The notes under the pieces were generated by a model, which saw only the letters and a list, made by a program, of their open reading frames with translations, was not told the origin of the DNA and did not search any database. Positions 24,442-46,128 of a DNA stretch of 51,416 bases are shown piece by piece. Position 1 is the first letter of the stretch; each line of letters begins with the position of its first letter. The DNA is from an uncultured Actinomycetes bacterium (GTDB lineage Bacteria; Actinomycetota; Acidimicrobiia; Acidimicrobiales; RAAP-2): assembly GCA_903918025.1 (NCBI GenBank), contig CAIXCS010000036.1:1-51416 (forward strand), written 5' to 3'. Position numbers and translations under genes: made by a program.

Positions 24442-25692
24442 GTGAATAGCACTGACACCCTCTGGGTCATCGTTTCGGCAGCCCTCGTCCTCTTTATGAC
24501 CCCCGGCCTCGCCCTCTTCTATGGCGGCATGGTTCGCAGCAAGAACGTGCTGGCCATCATGATGAACAGCCTCGCTGCCATGGCGATCGTCACGGTGTTG
24601 TGGACGCTTGTCGCTGGTAGTTGGGCGTTTGGTTCGGACCTCGGTGGTGGTCTCTTAGGAAACTTCTCGTTGGTGGGCCTCGCACATATCCCTTCGAATC
24701 TCGCGGGAATGGTGGGCGTCCACGCTTCGCCACTCGCGCTCTTGCTCTATCAAATGATGTTCGCCATCATCACTGCCGCTCTCATTAGCGGTGGCACAGC
24801 GGACCGAATCAAGTTCACGTCGTTCGTGGTCCTGATCAGCGTGTGGACACTGCTTGTCTATGCCCCACTTGCCCACTGGGTCTTTAGCCCAACCGGATGG
24901 CTGGCACACCGCGGCGTGCTCGACTTCGCCGGAGGGACGGTCGTGGAGATCAACTCTGGATTCTCCACTTTGGCCGTTGTGCTGGTTCTCGGAGCTCGGC
25001 GGGGTTGGCCACGCGAGTCCATGATGCCCCACTCGGTTCCTCTCTCACTGCTCGGTCTCGGCATCCTCTGGTTTGGTTGGCTCGGTTTCAATGGCGGCTC
25101 CGCAATGAGCGTGAACAATGTCGCCGTTTCGGCCGTCTTCAACACGCAACTGGCTGCGGCCGCCGGTCTCATTGGCTGGTTGCTCTATGAACGCGTGACT
25201 GAGCACTTTGCCACGACGCTTGGCGCCGCCTCTGGTGCCGTGGCCGGCATGGTCGCCATCACGCCATGCGCTGGCTACGTCCCTCCCTACGCAGCCCTGA
25301 TTATTGGGTTGATCGCGGGGCTCGCGTGCGCCAAGGCGGTTCGCCTGAAGTTCAAGTTCGGCATCGACGACTCGCTGGATGTGCTTGGCGTTCACGGCGT
25401 TGGTGGTGTGGTTGGCATGATTCTCTTGGGCTTCTTTGCCACCAAGCAGATCAATCACGGAGGTGCGAATGGCCTCTTCTCCGGAGGCGGGCTGCACCTT
25501 GAACTCAATCAGTTGCTCGCAGTCGTCGTCAGCGCGTCGTTTGCCTTTGGTGCCACGTGGGTGATTGCCCAGGTCATCGATCGCACGATGGGCCTGCGCG
25601 TCTCTGACGAAGACGAAATGAGAGGTCTCGATCTTTCACAGCACGCAGAGAGTGCGTACTCCGCAGGCAACACTGGTCGTTTCAGTAGTTAG
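24442..25692 (+). CDS. amt: Ammonium transporter (Amt family)
   Basis: Amt signatures are present across 11 TMs: LVLFMTPGLALFYGGMVRSKN, DFAGGTVVEINSGFS and VHGVGGVVGMILLGFFA. It has a GTG start 8 nt after glnK. Confidence 0.9.
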   Translation: MNSTDTLWVIVSAALVLFMTPGLALFYGGMVRSKNVLAIMMNSLAAMAIVTVLWTLVAGSWAFGSDLGGGLLGNFSLVGLAHIPSNLAGMVGVHASPLALLLYQMMFAIITAALISGGTADRIKFTSFVVLISVWTLLVYAPLAHWVFSPTGWLAHRGVLDFAGGTVVEINSGFSTLAVVLVLGARRGWPRESMMPHSVPLSLLGLGILWFGWLGFNGGSAMSVNNVAVSAVFNTQLAAAAGLIGWLLYERVTEHFATTLGAASGAVAGMVAITPCAGYVPPYAALIIGLIAGLACAKAVRLKFKFGIDDSLDVLGVHGVGGVVGMILLGFFATKQINHGGANGLFSGGGLHLELNQLLAVVVSASFAFGATWVIAQVIDRTMGLRVSDEDEMRGLDLSQHAESAYSAGNTGRFSS

Positions 25693-25693
25693 T

Positions 25694-25708
25694 TGGTGCG
25701 GGCGGGGT
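25694..25708 (+). repeat. Direct repeat 1: degenerate copy (13/15) of the tRNA-Arg 3' end (tggtgcgggcggggt)
   Basis: It starts 1 nt after the amt stop codon. Compare 28286-28300 and 29594-29608 (tggtgcgggcggagg). Confidence 0.75.
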
Positions 25709-25781
25709 TGTTGAGTTTCACGGCTTGGTTGATAGATGAGTCGCGACGTTGTTGATACGGACGTGAACTCCACGACGGGGA

Positions 25782-26190
25782 ATGTCCAAGTCTCTCGGCG
25801 TGGTGTAGTCAGTCATTCACCAGGGTTTGTCAACGGCCAACGTGGCGATGAGGTACAACGTGTCATGCCCCAGGCCCGCACCTTGGTGACCCGCTCGGGC
25901 GCCGGAGGTCTTGGAACTACAGCGCCCCGGAGTTCTTGATCGACCAGTAATCCTCGGCAATGACAAACGACACGGCTGCAGCAATCGTCTCGCTCCGCCA
26001 CGAGCTGGTTGCCCCTGGGTCTAGACGAAGGTCCCATCACCATTGCATGGTGCTTCCGACAGCGGCGCCAGGCCGAGCCGTCAACCTCAAGCATGGTCCG
26101 TTGTTTCTCTGCAATGGTCGTGTGTAGCGCTGGGGCTGCTGAGTAGTGACCTGTCGTGGCGTTTCGACGACGGCGTTCAGTCGGCACCAA
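25782..26190 (+). pseudogene. IS481-family transposase 5' remnant (HTH region only; frameshifted, with stops)
   Basis: The DNA is collinear with 28374 to about 28780 (shared strings aatgtccaag, gtaatcctcggcaa, tcgctccgccacga, atcaccattgc). It is broken by stops and truncated at the fic stop codon. It keeps TGG (I-A-W) where the intact copy has TGA. Confidence 0.65.
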
Positions 26191-26192
26191 GC

Positions 26193-26789
26193 TCAGGTGA
26201 CGACAAATTCCTCGAGCGGTCCGAAATCCCCTCGGTCCGCAGCTCGTAGAGCGATGAGATATTGCTGTCGGACTTGCTCGATATTGCGAGCTCCGCTGAA
26301 AGCGCCCCAGGTGAGCGGCGGCTGCCCTAGTGCCACTATGAGGTAATCGGCAGCCAGACGGCCATGTCTGCCGTTGCCGTTGGAGAACGGGTGAATCCAA
26401 ACGAGGCGGTGATGAAACCGGACTGCAGCGATCAGTGGCTCCTCGCTTGCAATCCAAATCTTGGTATCGCTCACGAGGTCTCGCACCCTGACGGCAATCT
26501 GCACGGGATCGATGCCAAGCGACATCTCGAGTTGCCGATACTGGCCAGCCCAAGTCCAAACGTCACCAAACATTGCTCGATGAAGGTCTCGTAGATACTT
26601 GTCGTCCAGCAGCGCCTCTACCGTTGGCGGCCGTCTCCCCTGACGCGCTCGAAGGATGTTCTCCTGTTCCGCCTCGTTCAACTCGTCACGCGTCGTGACG
26701 TAGGTCAACTTCAACCCTTGGCGGTCGTCGTCACCAAGTGGCGTGTGGCCATCTCCAAGTGGAATGAGCGGATTGGTGGGCGGGGTCAT
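26193..26789 (-). CDS. Fic-family protein of the 'mobile mystery protein B' type
   Basis: It has the Fic motif HPFSNGNGRHGR, preceded by RFHHRLVWI. FGDVWTWAGQYR and an N-terminal DELNEAEQENI match my recollection of the mob_myst_B family. Confidence 0.85.
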   Translation of the reverse strand: MTPPTNPLIPLGDGHTPLGDDDRQGLKLTYVTTRDELNEAEQENILRARQGRRPPTVEALLDDKYLRDLHRAMFGDVWTWAGQYRQLEMSLGIDPVQIAVRVRDLVSDTKIWIASEEPLIAAVRFHHRLVWIHPFSNGNGRHGRLAADYLIVALGQPPLTWGAFSGARNIEQVRQQYLIALRAADRGDFGPLEEFVVT

Positions 26790-27253
26790 GAAGTCAGCCG
26801 CGTTTTGGGCTCTGCCCAGAGGTTTCGTCCGTCTACAAATTGTTTGGCAAGCTCATCAACTTGTGCCTCGGCGACGGCAGGCCCTGGTGCCTGATCCTCG
26901 AGGGCCATCGTGTGCCACACAACCTCGACTTCGGCCCGTGCTCGCAGAACGGCCTGACGGTGCACCATCTCCTCGAGTGGCTCGTTTGGCACGAAGACAT
27001 AGTGAACTTGGCAGTTCAGAGCTCGGGCAGCGCGCTCGAGCGTGTCGAGGCGGATAGAACCCAGCTCTTCTGACCGTTCGAGTTGGCTGATTCGGGACTG
27101 GGTGATACCCATGCGTTGACTGAGTTCGCCTGTAGTCATGCCGAGCGCCTGCCTGATCGCTCGGATCCAGCCTCGAGGCGGTCGCTCACCCAAGTCAAGA
27201 CCGGCAAGTCGTTGATCAAGACGTCTCCTCGCGGTGCGTCGAATGGTGTTCAC
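26786..27253 (-). CDS. XRE-type HTH protein of the 'mobile mystery protein A' type (putative antitoxin/regulator of the Fic protein)
   Basis: It has RGWIRAIRQALGMTTGELSQRMGITQSRISQLERSE (an HTH_XRE) followed by LDTLERAARALNCQVHYVFVP. A 4-nt overlap couples it to fic. Confidence 0.8.
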   Translation of the reverse strand: MNTIRRTARRRLDQRLAGLDLGERPPRGWIRAIRQALGMTTGELSQRMGITQSRISQLERSEELGSIRLDTLERAARALNCQVHYVFVPNEPLEEMVHRQAVLRARAEVEVVWHTMALEDQAPGPAVAEAQVDELAKQFVDGRNLWAEPKTRLTS

Positions 27254-27314
27254 TTCGGCTCCTTTGAGTAGAAAGAACTACTTACTTACCTATCAGGCTA
27301 GTAGATAAAGCAAC

Positions 27315-27339
27315 TGATAACTCACAAAATGAGTTGATA
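27315..27339. promoter_or_regulatory. Candidate operator: an inverted repeat in the AT-rich leader upstream of the XRE gene
   Basis: The sequence is tgatAACTCAcaaaaTGAGTTgata, a 6-bp perfect inverted repeat flanked by tgata/gata. It lies about 60-85 nt upstream of the start at 27253, in the most AT-rich stretch of the window. Confidence 0.2.
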
Positions 27340-27556
27340 ATCCTATTAAAAGCGTCTTCGCTCCATGGGGTTGAGCACGGCCGTCGTACTCACGAAGATC
27401 ACCTAAAAGGACAAGAGTGTCAGTAGGGAAGCGTGGACGCCGCCTCCACGGAGTCCTTGACTCGAACAGCGGTCGAACCATTGATGCCTTGGCGCAGGTA
27501 CTTCAAAACTCAGCCAATCGATGACATTGAAACGCTCGGAAGTCCTCTCCGACGAC

Positions 27557-28135
27557 TTACAACTTTGAGGCATCAAGCAGGCCTATAAGCCACTCTTCGG
27601 TAGCGGACCATCTTCTTCGTTCCGACTTCACCCACATCGTCATGACAAATACGCCCCATAGGAAGAAACCGGGTGGAAACAAGAGCGCTGCCGGATGGAT
27701 GGCATGCATCGAGGGTCCCGAATTCAACGCGGAGAAGATAAGGATTACTTCCATAGAAAGGCAGAACAGAAACATGAATGCCATCATCAAGGGTAGAAGT
27801 GCAATCGGCCCAACGCTTCCGACTAGGAGGGATCCTGTCGAAGTGGGTTCAATCACTCCATTGAACGAAAAGGCCGAATTATTACTGAGCCAACTCCTAG
27901 TTTTGATCGTGAAGTCTGCACCTTGGACCCAACCCCCCTGCTTCGCACTCAACCACCCGACGAATGATCCGGTGCGGAGCGATTCGGCGAGGCGATGTCG
28001 AACGATGTCTGAAGGCAAGGAAGTTTCAAACACGACATTCTGTTTAAAGAGTGGGAGTCTTCTGACTCGACCATAAATCCGAGGAATCACCGAATCACTT
28101 TCGGGTGGAACACCGTCATCATTCGAGTGGTTCAC
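27557..28135 (-). CDS. Hypothetical membrane protein (cargo of the decayed element)
   Basis: This 192-aa protein has a soluble N-terminal half and then 2-3 TM helices (PIALLPLMMAFMFLFCLSMEVILIF; LLFPPGFFLWGVFVMTMWV). It is visibly more AT-rich than the backbone genes, and I recognise no motif. Confidence 0.45.
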   Translation of the reverse strand: MNHSNDDGVPPESDSVIPRIYGRVRRLPLFKQNVVFETSLPSDIVRHRLAESLRTGSFVGWLSAKQGGWVQGADFTIKTRSWLSNNSAFSFNGVIEPTSTGSLLVGSVGPIALLPLMMAFMFLFCLSMEVILIFSALNSGPSMHAIHPAALLFPPGFFLWGVFVMTMWVKSERRRWSATEEWLIGLLDASKL

Positions 28136-28285
28136 GCCGCAACTCTACGCACGCACTCAGCCAAAGGTGAAGGTGATCGGAACCACCACGATTGACTCAT
28201 CGAAGAGCTACCAGAAAATGAGAGAACCCCTCTGAACTACGTTCACAGCGGTTCACCGTGTCCGCAAGGTCTCGCGACATCACAC

Positions 28286-28300
28286 TGGTGCGGGCGGAGG
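28286..28300 (+). repeat. Direct repeat 2: exact 15-bp copy of the tRNA-Arg 3' end (tggtgcgggcggagg), the target-site duplication of the intact IS
   Basis: It is identical to 29594-29608 and lies immediately outside the left IR. Confidence 0.85.
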
Positions 28301-29593
28301 TGTTTAGGTTCACGACCTTGTTGATACCTGTGTCGCGTCATCGTTGATACTGGCATGACCCCCACGATGGGGAATGTCCAAGGCTCGAGTCATTGTGTTG
28401 TCGGTCGTGCACCAAGGTCTAACCAAGGCTGAAGTGGCCAAGAAGTACAACGTGTCGTGGCAGTGGGTCCATACGCTCGTGACTCGCTACAACGCCGGTG
28501 GCCTCGAGGCGGTTGAACCGAGAAGCTCTCGACCAGCGAGTAATCCTCGGCAACTCTCTCCCACTACGGCAGCAGCCATCATTTCGCTCCGCCACGAACT
28601 CGTTGCTCAAGGTTTAGATGCCGGGCCAATCACCATTGCCTGACACCTTGAGCGCCAAGGACAACACGTCCCCTCAGTGTCGAGCATTCGTCGGGTGCTC
28701 CTTGGAGCAGGCCTCGTCCCACCTGAACCGAAAAAGCGTCCGAAAGCATCGTTGCAACGATTCGAAGCCGACCAACCCAATGAGATGTGGCAATCAGACT
28801 TCACTCACTGGCATCTCGCAGATGACAGTGATGTGGAGATCATCAATTGGCTCGATGATCACTCCAGATTTCTCTTGGCCATGGTGGTGCATCGCAGGAT
28901 CACTGGTCGCATCGTGATCGAGACCTTCACCGATTGCGTCAATGCCTTTGGTCTTCCAGCGTCAACCCTGACGGACAATGGCGTCGTCTACACAACCCGC
29001 CTCATTGGAGGGCGAAACGGCTTTGAGCACTTGCTCGCCTCACTCGGAGTCATCCAGAAAAATGGACAACCGAGTCACCCGCAGACGCAGGGCAAAATCG
29101 AACGATTCCATCAAACACTCAAGAAATGGCTCACCGAACAGCCGTCTGCGGCCACCATTGAGCAACTCCAAGGACAACTCGATCGCTTTCGAGAGCTCTA
29201 CAACGAACACCGGCCCCACCGAGGAGCACATCGACAAACACCAGGCACTGCTTATCGAGCAACGCCAAAAGCAACTGCTCGTTCGCGAGGATCGATTCAC
29301 TATCGAGTTCGCTTTGACAACGTTGACCAATTCGGCAAAATGACCCTTCGCCATGCAGGAGTGCTTCGCCATCTTGGAATTGGCAATCAACACGCTGGAG
29401 CGAAGGCATTGCTCCTCATTGATGCAGCAATGGTGACGGTGACAGACCTGTCAACTGGCGAAATTCTCTCGCAGCATCACATCGACGAGAGCAAGAACTA
29501 CTGGCGCAATCAACTTCGACAGCCCGGCCGCTGGCCGAGGTGACTATCAACGGTGTCGCGACTCATCTATCAACGATGTCGCGACTCATCACA
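28301..29593 (+). mobile_element. IS481-family insertion sequence (1293 bp) inserted in the 3' end of tRNA-Arg
   Basis: The left IR is TGTTTAGGTTCACGACCTTGTTGATA (28301-28326). The complement of the right IR is TGTGATGAGTCGCGACATCGTTGATA (29568-29593). They match at 18 of 26 positions by my alignment. A single transposase frame lies inside, and the element is flanked by a perfect 15-bp direct repeat. Confidence 0.8.
28374..29543 (+). pseudogene. IS481-family DDE transposase (HTH plus rve integrase core) interrupted by one in-frame TGA
   Basis: Track ORFs 28374..28643 and 28677..29543 are in the same frame. The read-through sequence is ...GPITIA*HLERQGQHVPSVSSIRRVLLGAGLVPPEPKKRP.... The rve core is present (MWQSDFTHW..DD.SRF; TDNG..Y). 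The TGA at 28641-28643 replaces the Trp codon that the remnant copy retains. Confidence 0.8.
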
Positions 29594-29670
29594 TGGTGCG
29601 GGCGGAGGGATTCGAACCCCCAACCTTCTGATCCGTAGTCAGATGCTCTAATCCGTTGAGCTACGCCCGC
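29594..29670 (-). tRNA. tRNA-Arg (anticodon ACG), CCA encoded
   Basis: The reverse complement is GCGGGCGTAGCTCAACGGATTAGAGCATCTGACTACGGATCAGAAGGTTGGGGGTTCGAATCCCTCCGCCCGCACCA. It folds as a cloverleaf with anticodon stem TCTGA/TCAGA, loop CTACGGA, and T-loop TTCGAAT. Confidence 0.9.
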
Positions 29671-32414: not shown

Positions 32415-33773
32415 TCATTTCGCAGACTTCTTCCGCGTCATTCCGCCAAGACTCACCACGAAGGGACGTTCGGTGTCATAGAGCACGATTGCCTGTCCGC
32501 GCTCAAGGGCGACCAGTTGTTCACCTCGGAGACGAGGTCGCCGTTCGCGTTGCACATGGGTGGATACCTCGCCTTTCGCTCGAGTAGTTGAGCTGGTCTC
32601 CACCACTTCTTCGCCGCTCAAGTCACGGAACATCTGGACCGTCGTTGGATCAATGGTTCCCGCACACAGCACTCGGGCTCGATGGTTGAGCACGAGTGAC
32701 GTGCCAAGAGCTCCGTGGCGAGCCACAACCTGACCAATGTCTTGGAACACCGTCAGCAGCGTGATGCCTTGACCTACTCCCGTCGCGGCAAGTTGGGCAA
32801 GTGTTTCGAGACCGGCGAGTTGCGCCGCTTCGTCTTGAACGACCAGAAGTGGTTGGCGGAGGCGACCCCCTTCAGACGCCGCACGTCGCATTGCGTGATC
32901 GAGCGCTTCGTTTCGTATGGCGGTCAGCATTCCTCGCGAGCGATCTTGGTCCCTCAGGGGGGCGCAGAGATACAGGGTTCCTTTGGCTTCAAGGAGTTGA
33001 TCAAAATCGAGACGGCCGCCAATACCGGATCCTCCATCAATGAGCGATTCGACCACTACCTCAATTGTCGTCGTGATCGAACTCGACTGCCGGGGATCGC
33101 GATCAAGACTTCCGAGCACCACCCGATAGGCATCGTGTTCGGATGCTGCAAGGAGAATTGCCAATGGCTCACTGAGCTGCTGTTCACTAATCCATGAAAG
33201 GAGTTCAGCAAGCGTGGCATCTGACAGTGCGGCGGCGAGGAGCAGTGGAGCCAGCATTCTCGCGGCTGCTGCGAGCCAAAAGGCTTCGTCGCCACTCGGC
33301 ACCATGGCGCTTGACGCAGCGCAGAGATCCTTGGCAAGTCGACGAGCCTCGCTGAAGGTGCCAACAGACGCCATGGGATTCCAAGAAACCGTCGGGAAGG
33401 TGCTCGCCTTTCCTGGGTCAATCACTGCAACTGGACCTCGACGTGAGCGGTGTTCCACGGTCGCTCGGAGCACGTCATCTTTGACGCTCGAAACGAGGAC
33501 CGGTCCATCCCAGTTCTCAATTGCCGGAATGACGAGCCGAGTGGTTTTTCCCGATTGTGTGGGACCAACAATGACCACGCTGTGCCCCGCCTCAGCCGAG
33601 ACCCCTCGATGGTTTGCTCTCCCGAGCTTCACGCGGTTGGGACCTTCTCCAGTAAGTCGTCTCGGAATTGACGTTCGGCGCTCTCCCTCTCGACTTCTTG
33701 CTATTCGTCTTCCAAGCCGTTCAGGTGAAGAGAGCACCGCAACGAGAGCCAGACTCACCACGGCGATGATCAA
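32415..33773 (-). CDS. VirD4/TraG-like type IV coupling-protein ATPase
   Basis: It has an N-terminal TM, Walker A (IVGPTQSGKTTRLVIP) and Walker B (PLLVVQDEAAQL). A 4-nt overlap joins it to the upstream ATPase gene. Confidence 0.65.
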   Translation of the reverse strand: MIIAVVSLALVAVLSSPERLGRRIARSREGERRTSIPRRLTGEGPNRVKLGRANHRGVSAEAGHSVVIVGPTQSGKTTRLVIPAIENWDGPVLVSSVKDDVLRATVEHRSRRGPVAVIDPGKASTFPTVSWNPMASVGTFSEARRLAKDLCAASSAMVPSGDEAFWLAAAARMLAPLLLAAALSDATLAELLSWISEQQLSEPLAILLAASEHDAYRVVLGSLDRDPRQSSSITTTIEVVVESLIDGGSGIGGRLDFDQLLEAKGTLYLCAPLRDQDRSRGMLTAIRNEALDHAMRRAASEGGRLRQPLLVVQDEAAQLAGLETLAQLAATGVGQGITLLTVFQDIGQVVARHGALGTSLVLNHRARVLCAGTIDPTTVQMFRDLSGEEVVETSSTTRAKGEVSTHVQRERRPRLRGEQLVALERGQAIVLYDTERPFVVSLGGMTRKKSAK

Positions 33774-34996
33774 CGTCGCATCGCGTGATCGCTATCGATC
33801 ATTTCCCGCTCGTGATCGTGAACGTGATGTCGAACAAGATGCGCTTCACCTGAAACTCTCCAAAGTGCGACTCCCCTTCCGAGGGTTGGAAGGAGTCCAA
33901 TCTCGGTTGCACCGTGCCCGAGGATCTCCCCCGCATCAGTTGCATCCTCCTGTCCGAGTTGGAAACACACCGACGTCCCTGAATCAGCCAACAATCCAGC
34001 TGCGAGCGCGACGGTTGAGTCGCCGCGGTCACCAACTCCAAGGACATCGGAAACACGGTGCAGCACGAGAATGTTTGACGTTGCCGTTGATCGCGCCAAT
34101 TTCCACGAACCTTGGAGCCAACGAGAGACACTCAAATCACTGAGTACTGCCCACGCTTCATCGAGCACCAAATACCTCGGGCTCAAGGGGGTCGAACTCG
34201 CACCCTCCAGCCACGCAAGTGTGCAGGCAATGACCAGGGGCAGTGCGCTCGTGTTCCAAACGGCAGAGAGGTCGAGGATCACGAGCGAGTGGTCAAGTGT
34301 GCACGATGGCGAGGTGACGGCATCGAACATTCCAGCCAGATCCCCTTCCGTCAGGCGAAGGAGTTCAAGCGCGAGTTCTCGGCCATCGATCTGCAGTGCA
34401 CTGACGGAACAGTGGAGGCGCTTGGCGGCACTCGCCTGAGGCTCAAACAGCGCATCGCCAATTGCTCCAATGGTGGCATTGCTCATCAGTGAAACAGCCC
34501 CTCTCGCCTCAACGAGCGCTGCTCGTTCTCCAGGGGTGAGGCCACGCTTGAGGCCATGTTCAAGAAGGGCCACGAGTAGCGCCACATCTGTGCGAATCGA
34601 CGTTGGATCAGGGCCCCCACGAACGGGGTTCAGTTGGATCGATCCACCTGGTTCCAGTCGAATGGGTGTCACGCCGACCACCGCAGCGAGTGACTCGTAC
34701 TCCCCCTTCGGATCGAGCACCACTGCCCTCCGGCCTCGTTTGAGTTCACGCAGGAGAAACGTCTTGATGAACGCGCTCTTGCCCTTCCCAAGTTGTCCAA
34801 GCACCACAAGATTGGGATTGGTCACGAAGCCCTGGGCATACGCCGTGAAGGGATCAAACGTGAACTCCCCTCCAAGGAGATCCGCACCAATTGCAGTGCC
34901 GTGATTGACCATGGAGCCAGTGGTCACGGGCGCTAACACCCCAAGATGTTCCGTCGTCCATTCAAACGATGCCTGCAGCCAACGCTTCCTCTTCAC
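33770..34996 (-). CDS. VirB4-like T4SS ATPase domain protein (C-terminal half of a split VirB4)
   Basis: It has Walker A (VLGQLGKGKSAFIKT) and Walker B (RYLVLDEAWAVL). It is coupled by 4 nt to both neighbours. Confidence 0.65.
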   Translation of the reverse strand: MKRKRWLQASFEWTTEHLGVLAPVTTGSMVNHGTAIGADLLGGEFTFDPFTAYAQGFVTNPNLVVLGQLGKGKSAFIKTFLLRELKRGRRAVVLDPKGEYESLAAVVGVTPIRLEPGGSIQLNPVRGGPDPTSIRTDVALLVALLEHGLKRGLTPGERAALVEARGAVSLMSNATIGAIGDALFEPQASAAKRLHCSVSALQIDGRELALELLRLTEGDLAGMFDAVTSPSCTLDHSLVILDLSAVWNTSALPLVIACTLAWLEGASSTPLSPRYLVLDEAWAVLSDLSVSRWLQGSWKLARSTATSNILVLHRVSDVLGVGDRGDSTVALAAGLLADSGTSVCFQLGQEDATDAGEILGHGATEIGLLPTLGRGVALWRVSGEAHLVRHHVHDHEREMIDSDHAMRR

Positions 34997-46052: not shown

Positions 46053-46128
46053 GCCCCCATCGTCTAGCGGCCTAGGACGCCGCCCTTTCACGGCGGTAAC
46101 ACGGGTTCGAATCCCGTTGGGGGTACCA
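46053..46128 (+). tRNA. tRNA-Glu (anticodon TTC), CCA encoded
   Basis: The sequence is GCCCCCATCGTCTAGCGGCCTAGGACGCCGCCCTTTCACGGCGGTAACACGGGTTCGAATCCCGTTGGGGGTACCA. The anticodon loop is CTTTCAC and the T-loop is TTCGAAT. Confidence 0.9.

Follow-up and report, generated by a model that had tools for sequence, protein, structure and literature searches.

The window analysed here is a 51-kb stretch from a metagenome-type assembly of an uncultured actinomycete, and all features are numbered on it. Between its amt gene and a gene for a transfer RNA (tRNA), tRNA-Arg(ACG), lie 3.9 kb of DNA that are very probably a stack of insertions at the tRNA gene's 3' end, made by DDE transposases of an Actinomycetota-wide IS481 lineage that is specific for tRNA-type T-arm/acceptor DNA. 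Two insertion sequences (IS) make up the stack, a younger element next to the tRNA gene, IS-B, and an older relic on the amt side, IS-A, and each is bounded by short copies of the tRNA end.

The tRNA-Arg gene is complete and occupies 29594-29670 on the minus strand (ARAGORN; Rfam tRNA model, 71.2 bits). Its last 15 nt, nt 62-76 with the encoded CCA, read TGGTGCGGGCGGAGG on the plus strand. When up to two mismatches were allowed, this 15-mer was found at three sites only in the 51 kb, all in the plus-strand sense: DR3 (29594-29608) is the genuine tRNA end, DR2 (28286-28300) is an exact copy, and DR1 (25694-25708) is a degenerate copy identical at 13 of 15 positions, which starts 1 nt past the stop of the amt open reading frame (ORF) ending at 25692. 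Shuffled sequence would yield 0.18 matches, and three matches were seen in none of 100 shuffles. No tRNA-Arg fragment longer than 15 nt was found in the region of 25.7-29.6 kb. DR1 is the left target duplication of IS-A, DR2 is shared by both elements, on the right of IS-A and on the left of IS-B, and DR3 is the right duplication of IS-B. Since a copy of the tRNA end stands 1 nt from the amt stop, the whole of 25694-29593 is best read as insertional. Directly after the duplication follows the tRNA T-arm (nt 49-65; 29605-29621, minus strand), which reads GATTCGAAC on the plus strand and is the probable recognition determinant. A preliminary description of this DNA, drawn up from the letters alone, had located the 15-mer at these three positions, at the tRNA 3' end and 1 nt after the amt stop, and had interpreted the repeats as target-site duplications that leave the tRNA whole; ARAGORN, Rfam and the mismatch search agreed with the former, and the latter is supported.

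IS-B (28301-29593, plus strand) is an IS481-family element of 1293 bp with TGT...ACA tips that lies between the two exact 15-mers. Its terminal inverted repeats (IR) of about 50 bp (left, about 28301-28350; right, about 29544-29593) hold two GTCGCGAC-N3-GTTGATA motifs each, and this motif gave 7 matches against 1.65 expected. The transposase frame of 389 codons (28374-29543, plus strand) comprises two helix-turn-helix (HTH) domains, the rve DDE core and a C-terminal beta domain, and it is interrupted by a single in-frame stop, TGA, at 28641-28643. The element had been called intact in the preliminary description, the sole statement there about the sequence that did not hold. At the position of this TGA, a Trp codon or read-through is found in the IS-A copy, in L167 and in the full-length homologues among the 120 listed. 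In the protein collection, only the C-terminal part of 282 aa was seen as a product of IS-B. The contig L167, from a metagenome, contains a 1293-bp copy that is 98.5% identical to IS-B, has TGG instead of TGA and thus an intact ORF of 389 aa, and is flanked by the end of a tRNA other than the tRNA-Arg of the window, TGGTGGAGGTAAGGG. Because such an intact and nearly identical copy exists at a different tRNA end, IS-B is a recently mobile element and the copy in the window a recent nonsense mutant.

The assignment to the IS481 family, made earlier by eye, was right: the NCBIfam IS481 model NF033577 matched residues 7-293 of the transposase with 247 bits against a cutoff of 224, and the models for IS3, ISNCY, IS630 and IS21 all scored under their cutoffs. 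Pfam matches of the protein are rve, rve_3, HTH_32, HTH_29, HTH_28 and HTH_23. As in other IS481 elements, there is a single long ORF with no programmed frameshift (the 389-codon frame, intact in L167), and the terminal inverted repeats start with TGT.

Of IS-A, only the two ends are left. The left part (25709-26049, plus strand) consists of a left IR, which starts with TGT and has two motifs of the GTCGCGAC-N3-GTTGATA type, and a decayed 5' region of the transposase gene, and weak similarity to IS-B may run on to about 26110. The left IRs of the two elements are identical at 21 of 26 positions (25709-25734 in IS-A). The transposase remnant is broken by stops and frameshifts and is 70% identical to IS-B by blastn over 25709-26049, with a mean column identity of 81% in a MAFFT alignment. 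The right tip (28268-28285, plus strand) is marked by the 12-mer CGCGACATCACA at 28273-28284, which matches once in the window, is the same as the right tips of the relatives L043 and L075, and ends 1 nt from DR2. These remains, namely a decayed right end to the left of the middle repeat, a second left IR and a fragment of the transposase 5' region, had been recognized from the letters alone and were found again. Apart from 25709-26049 and the 12-nt tip, local alignment against IS-B detected no IS-derived sequence between the ends of IS-A; from the transposase gene, about 850 bp are absent altogether, not just decayed.

A single extra C stands between the right tip (...CATCACA) and the tRNA-end repeat, at position 28285 of the window and likewise at position 1366 of L167, and in both the IS-A relic and L167 the left repeat is preceded by T. 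The extra base may reflect a 16-bp duplication with a mismatched outer base or may be a base that was carried over.

DR2 and DR3 are exactly the same, DR1 has drifted and IS-A has decayed; therefore, IS-A was inserted first and IS-B second. In the proposed history of the locus, IS-A would have entered first and lost its interior, where a Fic/HTH cassette and an ORF of 192 aa are found now, and IS-B would have followed and later acquired the nonsense mutation from TGG to TGA. Two successive insertions of the same element had been suggested before. Two insertions at one tRNA target are upheld, and the layout recurs in six unrelated genomes, but identity of the elements is not: over 340 bp IS-A is only about 70% identical to IS-B, versus 98.5% for the true second copy in L167. 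To judge from such sequence comparison, IS-A and IS-B are two members of one lineage, or one of them is very old, and they are not demonstrably the same element.

The specificity of the lineage was revealed by its relatives. A scan based on the transposase, with one genome per species, gave 79 loci with transposases that are 49-72% identical; they belong to Acidimicrobiia, Mycobacteriales, Micrococcales (Arthrobacter, Sinomonas, Demequina, Brachybacterium), Nanopelagicales, Solirubrobacterales and others. Targets were counted at the 68 loci with a definable right end and at least 32 nt of readable flank, and at 66 of them the right end lies against tRNA-type DNA. In 46 cases it adjoins a full tRNA gene, encoded on the opposite strand, at its 3' end, 22 isoacceptors being represented. 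At thirteen, a T-arm motif stands next to the end where ARAGORN called no tRNA, which corresponds to one gene for transfer-messenger RNA (tmRNA) and 12 truncated tRNA 3' fragments of the kind left as attachment (att) sites; one (L055) abuts a degenerate T-arm-like fragment; and at six the right end is followed by a tRNA-end repeat of 15-16 nt and then by the left end of another IS. The remaining two loci are complex. The orientation is identical in all, with the IS right end toward the tRNA 3' end. The tmRNA case is L037 (3732-4099) of Arthrobacter, where a member of the clade abuts the 3' end of ssrA; therefore, the target class extends to the tRNA-like domain of tmRNA.

Both junctions could be reconstructed for 36 insertion sites, that of the window included. 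The duplication measures 15 bp in 19 of them, 16 bp in 16 and 17 bp in one. Its first base is tRNA nt 62, a single base away from the T-loop, and its end lies just past nt 76. Directly after it, G[AG]NTYGAAC is present in 36 of 36 sites, being the complement of C61 and then the T-loop. On the outer side, the information content of the 25 nt beyond the tRNA is about 0.1 bit per position, that is, no requirement for flanking sequence outside the tRNA, and the TGT tips of the 36 elements reach 2.0, 2.0 and 1.5-2.0 bits. Right end at the tRNA 3' end, fixed orientation and a duplication of 15-16 bp from nt 62 are thus combined exactly in IS-B, the ends of IS-A are consistent with them, and 66 of 68 relatives conform. 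Targeting of tRNA 3' ends, as proposed in the preliminary description, holds for every informative relative examined. Members of the IS481 family duplicate 4-15 bp according to the ISfinder tables, and the 15 bp in the window and 15-16 bp (once 17) in the relatives are at or just above the upper bound of that range, which suggests that elements with 15-bp repeats are already catalogued in ISfinder.

The repeat is made from the target and is not borne by the element, because the duplications of copies within one genome follow the tRNA at which each copy sits. For instance, L002, L003 and L004 of one genome are inserted at tRNA-Pro, tRNA-Thr and tRNA-Arg, and the duplications of L002 and L003 match their tRNAs, while the left junction of L004 is off the contig; L012, L015 and L017 are located at tRNA-Ser, tRNA-Ser and tRNA-Tyr, each with its own duplication. 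In addition, a search with the 23-mer of the right end found eight metagenome contigs, and all seven with a usable flank abut a tRNA 3' end in the same register. The sole close plasmid copy found is carried by a 754-kb Arthrobacter megaplasmid, in a tRNA fragment and with a perfect 15-bp duplication. The related copies measured are 1247-1428 bp long and none has cargo. A presumed miniature derivative of 460 bp in L169 was rejected as an artefact of the search window on a short contig.

Tandem stacks are to be expected, since each insertion regenerates the tRNA and the target survives to be hit again; later insertions push earlier copies outward, resulting in the order repeat, IS, repeat, IS, tRNA. 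This layout, with repeats of 15-16 nt, was found in six unrelated genomes. L041 has two copies, 100% identical, with a 15-mer between them beside tRNA-Ser, and the two tandem copies of L067 are 99% identical. Two different members (73% identical) stand in tandem in L019, an internally deleted relic lies beside tRNA-Ala in L013, and L014 and L046 show the tandem layout at contig ends. At the left junctions of L042, L047 and L078 (about 2385-2430), two or three tandem tRNA-end duplications are present beside a single IS copy, with a few bases of IS tip between some of them, and these may be footprints of tandem copies that have been lost.

Long duplications were also encountered in two further actinobacterial clades. 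The first, a sister clade, consists of IS481-type transposases of about 410 aa, approximately 37% identical to that of IS-B (L173-L253), in Mycobacterium, Kribbella, Nocardioides, Gordonia and others. Starting from a seed on a Mycolicibacterium alvei plasmid (L173 1123-2361, NZ_AP022566), 80 loci were scanned (L174-L253), and no tRNA adjoining the elements was found in them. The duplication is 15 bp in 29 of the 36 sites that could be reconstructed, 14 bp in six and 16 bp in one. In 34 of 36 sites, the LexA/SOS box TCGAAC-N4-GTTCGA (consensus from PMC3381160 and PMC9380542; up to 2 mismatches) is located at a distance of 12-15 bp to the duplication, with 25 sites at exactly 14 bp, and it occurs on either side of the element. 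The third clade is represented by L334 on a Rhodococcus qingshengii plasmid (NZ_AP023173, 438444-440080), whose transposase of 386 aa is 36% identical; it is flanked by a 16-bp duplication, CAACCGCGGGCGGTTA, which forms the centre of a long palindrome between convergent genes and suggests a hairpin or terminator as the target. Because three clades with transposases of about 390-410 aa give 15-16 bp, the long stagger is general to this branch of IS481, with a target reader that differs between clades. The earlier remark that strict targeting of a tRNA end with a long duplication would be unusual for a DDE element is to be corrected as to the duplication, which is common in this part of the family, and the tRNA target stands as the special feature of the present clade. 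The TCGAAC core is common to the tRNA T-loop and the LexA half-site, at 3 nt from the duplication in the tRNA clade versus 14 nt in the sister clade. The offset of 11 bp is about one helical turn, which is suggestive of, though no proof for, a one-protein reader that was retargeted.

As for the mechanism, the transposase or one of its domains would read the conserved T-arm DNA with the core TYGAAC, since no feature other than the T-arm is shared by every target, the tmRNA and the 3' fragments among them. The left IS end would then be joined between nt 61 and 62 of the tRNA-sense strand, and the right IS end to the opposite strand 15-16 bp away, just beyond nt 76; gap repair would duplicate nt 62-76/77 and rebuild the tRNA gene intact. 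Copy-out-paste-in chemistry, which has been proposed for IS481 and IS3, is presumed. An AlphaFold model of the transposase (predicted local distance difference test score, pLDDT, 76) has two HTH domains, an RNase H core and a six-stranded C-terminal beta domain, and its best structural matches are the transpososome subunits IstA, TnsB and MuA. Target mimicry, in which the IS ends resemble the T-arm, was considered as well (GTTYCA in the left IR versus GGTTCGA in the T-arm), and was not used as evidence because the likeness is weak and the offset different.

Several points weigh against the interpretation as a stack of T-arm-directed insertions. Recognition of the T-arm is deduced solely from its conservation and fixed distance, and the motif is common to all tRNAs and inseparable from the transcription, structure and bound factors of tRNA genes. 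The extra C between the IS-A tip and DR2, likewise in L167, is not accounted for, and 2.2 kb of non-IS DNA between the ends of IS-A are without an explained origin. An empty amt/tRNA-Arg site was not found, so the state before insertion is a reconstruction: exact look-ups of Amt and of the neighbouring protein of 170 aa gave only contigs that are arranged alike or break off at the IS, and in species-representative genomes the genes of the closest relatives of Amt (75% and 69% identical) are not in synteny with tRNA-Arg. Many of the loci come from metagenome-assembled genomes; the same pattern is seen in isolate genomes of Arthrobacter, Sinomonas, Demequina, Brachybacterium and Mycobacterium.

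The non-IS DNA within IS-A holds a two-gene cassette and one more ORF, all on the minus strand. The cassette encodes a Fic-domain protein, 'mobile mystery protein B' (26193-26789; TIGR02613, 193.7 bits), which is not IS-derived, and an HTH_3 protein, 'mobile mystery protein A' (26786-27253; TIGR02612, 143.2 bits). Between the cassette and the right tip of IS-A, an ORF of 192 aa with hydrophobic stretches (27557-28135) has no Pfam or NCBIfam family match and is not present in the related Fic/HTH loci. The closest relatives of the HTH and Fic pair are 71-81% identical in protein, with nucleotide homology of about 75% limited to the two genes (26192-27282); the ten closest (L254-L263) are from other Acidimicrobiaceae or related metagenome-assembled genomes. 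ARAGORN detected tRNA-Lys(TTT) in six of these ten, and in five of the six it is about 250 nt upstream of the cassette. In L254 (2757-4449), the cassette is part of a 1.6-kb islet that is bounded by an att-like 46-nt repeat of the tRNA-Lys 3' half and also by GTGACTACAAC repeats, and neither integrase nor IS ends were found in it. Because its relatives sit 3' of tRNA-Lys, in L254 without IS ends, the cassette is probably an independent tRNA-linked module as judged from gene context, and the idea of a Fic module carried as IS cargo, raised in the preliminary description, is probably to be abandoned. One possibility for its entry is insertion and deletion in one IS copy; another is deletion between two IS copies that flanked an older islet.

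The same cassette bears on two of the other explanations for the locus. It is very unlikely that the 15-mers are att remnants of a tyrosine-integrase island at tRNA-Arg, with the Fic module as its cargo and the IS copies as bystanders. The 3' ends of tRNA genes are the classic targets of integrases, the Fic/HTH relatives lie 3' of tRNA-Lys with an att-like 46-nt repeat in L254, and 13 IS copies of other genomes sit in tRNA fragments. However, no ORF at 25.7-29.6 kb encodes a recombinase, the region has no longer piece of tRNA-Arg, and the repeats are just 15 nt long, each bounded exactly by a TGT or ACA tip of an IS. Moreover, 35 other IS copies at many tRNAs are flanked by repeats of equal length and register. 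An earlier integrase event may have delivered the cassette, yet it would leave the 15-mers unexplained. Somewhat less improbable, though still unlikely, is a cargo transposon, in which 25709-28285 moved as one unit with the Fic/HTH genes and the 192-aa gene and the transposase decayed later. The cargo does lie exactly between the left end and the right tip of IS-A, and IS481-family transposons with passenger genes exist, such as TnRErm46 (PMC6794481). Nevertheless, a deletion or replacement is needed anyway with some 850 bp of the transposase gene gone, none of the measured related copies (1247-1428 bp) carries cargo, and the homology of the cassette covers the two genes only, in relatives without IS ends.

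That the repeats and IS-like ends arose by chance, or through a repeat collapsed or duplicated in assembly, is so improbable as to be negligible. The assembly is of the metagenome type and contigs built from short reads of the same organism are interrupted at the IS, but three matches to the 15-mer were seen against 0.18 expected, and independent samples contain the same arrangements of amt-Fic-HTH and of the 170-aa gene with the IS. IS-A and IS-B, at 70% identity, are also too different for an assembly duplication, and the architecture is repeated in isolate genomes and long-read assemblies. Successive insertion by tRNA-directed IS481 transposases is accordingly preferred.

Elsewhere in the window, a second tRNA gene, tRNA-Glu(TTC) with encoded CCA (46053-46128), carries no insertion at its 3' end, and tRNA-end repeats are absent from its vicinity. 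On the 5' side of tRNA-Arg, 32415-34996 (minus strand) encodes components of a type IV secretion system (T4SS), a T4SS-DNA_transf/TrwB coupling protein and a VirB4/TraG-like ATPase, followed by two large ORFs without a family. The T4SS genes may belong to a conjugative element that has no relation to the IS.

A broader proposal is put forward tentatively, at slightly less than an even chance. The two elements of the window may belong to an undescribed, phylum-wide lineage of single-gene DDE insertion sequences, 'tRNA-end integrators', that read the T-arm of all tRNAs and of tmRNA, cut 15-16 bp apart and regenerate the gene, with a sister lineage at LexA operators in which the target reader was retargeted between host motifs. 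To our knowledge, DDE transposases that act as one protein rarely insert site-specifically; the known site-specific cases are multi-protein machines of the Tn7 type, IS1202 relatives at dif sites and the RNA-guided IS110. An element of about 1.3 kb that enters at every tRNA or tmRNA 3' end, in one orientation and at one phosphodiester bond, and keeps the gene working would follow a natural 'safe-harbour' strategy so far credited to integrases and casposons, and the lineage, if this is true, converges on the behaviour of both. For annotation, it would explain recurrent assembly breaks, IS stacks and short tRNA-end repeats beside actinobacterial tRNA genes, and repeats of 15-16 nt from a tRNA end need not signal integrase islands. 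The lineages at tRNA ends and at LexA boxes constitute a tractable pair for studying target reading and the measurement of a 15-bp stagger by a DDE transposase, and may offer a compact scaffold for targeted insertion in Actinomycetota.

A full-text search of the literature, with ISfinder outside its scope, found no account of IS481 relatives that target tRNA ends or LexA boxes. Classical members of the family duplicate 6 bp, NCTAGN, and use many insertion sites (PMC6794481, PMC2516522); in-frame stops have also been reported in the transposase of ISLxc2 (PMC2516522). Like IS481, IS1002, ISLxc2 and ISRe46/TnRErm46, the present elements have a single rve DDE transposase with an N-terminal HTH, TGT...ACA ends, IRs with subterminal repeats and a length of about 1-1.3 kb. 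Unlike them, the present lineage does not use NCTAGN and duplicates 15-16 bp in one orientation at one position of tRNA-type genes. Its transposase of about 390 aa also has some 96 C-terminal residues beyond the part covered by the 284-position model, an extension that corresponds to the predicted beta domain.

The NCBIfam model ISNCY_2 (NF033594), which we assume to cover the IS1202 group, gave 74.9 bits against a cutoff of 250, which places the transposase outside that group if the model stands for it. The IS1202 family comprises DDE elements with TGT ends that are distantly related to IS481 and IS3 and make duplications of 5-6, 15-17 or 27-28 bp depending on the subgroup, and its ISAba32/ISAjo2 subgroup inserts at XerCD dif/pdif sites in fixed orientation and at a fixed distance, with tandem insertions (10.1101/2022.12.17.520857, PMC10132070). 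The tRNA-end lineage shares the long repeat with the ISTde1 subgroup (15-17 bp) and insertion at a fixed distance from a conserved host site with another subgroup; in contrast, the site-specific subgroup combines a recombinase binding site with 5-bp repeats, and targeting of tRNA genes is not reported for IS1202 elements. Neither TnsA/B/C with TnsD/TniQ or CRISPR, as expected for Tn7-like elements, belongs to the single-gene element, and TnsB is only a distant structural relative. In eukaryotes, Dada DNA transposons insert sequence-specifically in multicopy small-RNA genes, many tRNA genes among them (PMC8869645). Dada and the present elements are thus alike as DNA transposons that insert sequence-specifically in tRNA genes, but Dada make duplications of 6-7 bp inside the tRNA gene (A box, nt 8-13, or the anticodon region) and disrupt it.

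The closest parallels in behaviour come from elements with other enzymes. With islands and phages of tyrosine integrases, the lineage shares the genomic address, a tRNA regenerated by way of its directly repeated 3' end, and accumulation in tandem. Unlike their conservative recombination with an element-borne att site, typically of 40-50 nt as in L254, insertion here leaves a true target duplication of 15-16 bp, made anew for each tRNA and without a recombinase; at 25.7-29.6 kb, no recombinase ORF was found and the repeats are 15 nt bounded by IS tips. Family 2 casposons of Aciduliprofundum boonei duplicate 14-15 bp on insertion at the tRNA-Pro 3' end and need a TCAAATC motif upstream of the duplicated segment (PMC6614799), which in our reading is tRNA T-loop sequence. 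Insertion at a tRNA 3' end, a duplication of about 15 bp and an adjoining motif are common to both systems, whereas casposons are large archaeal elements with a Cas1-type casposase and their own polymerase, and their motif lies 8 bp from the duplication, versus 1 bp in the lineage described here.

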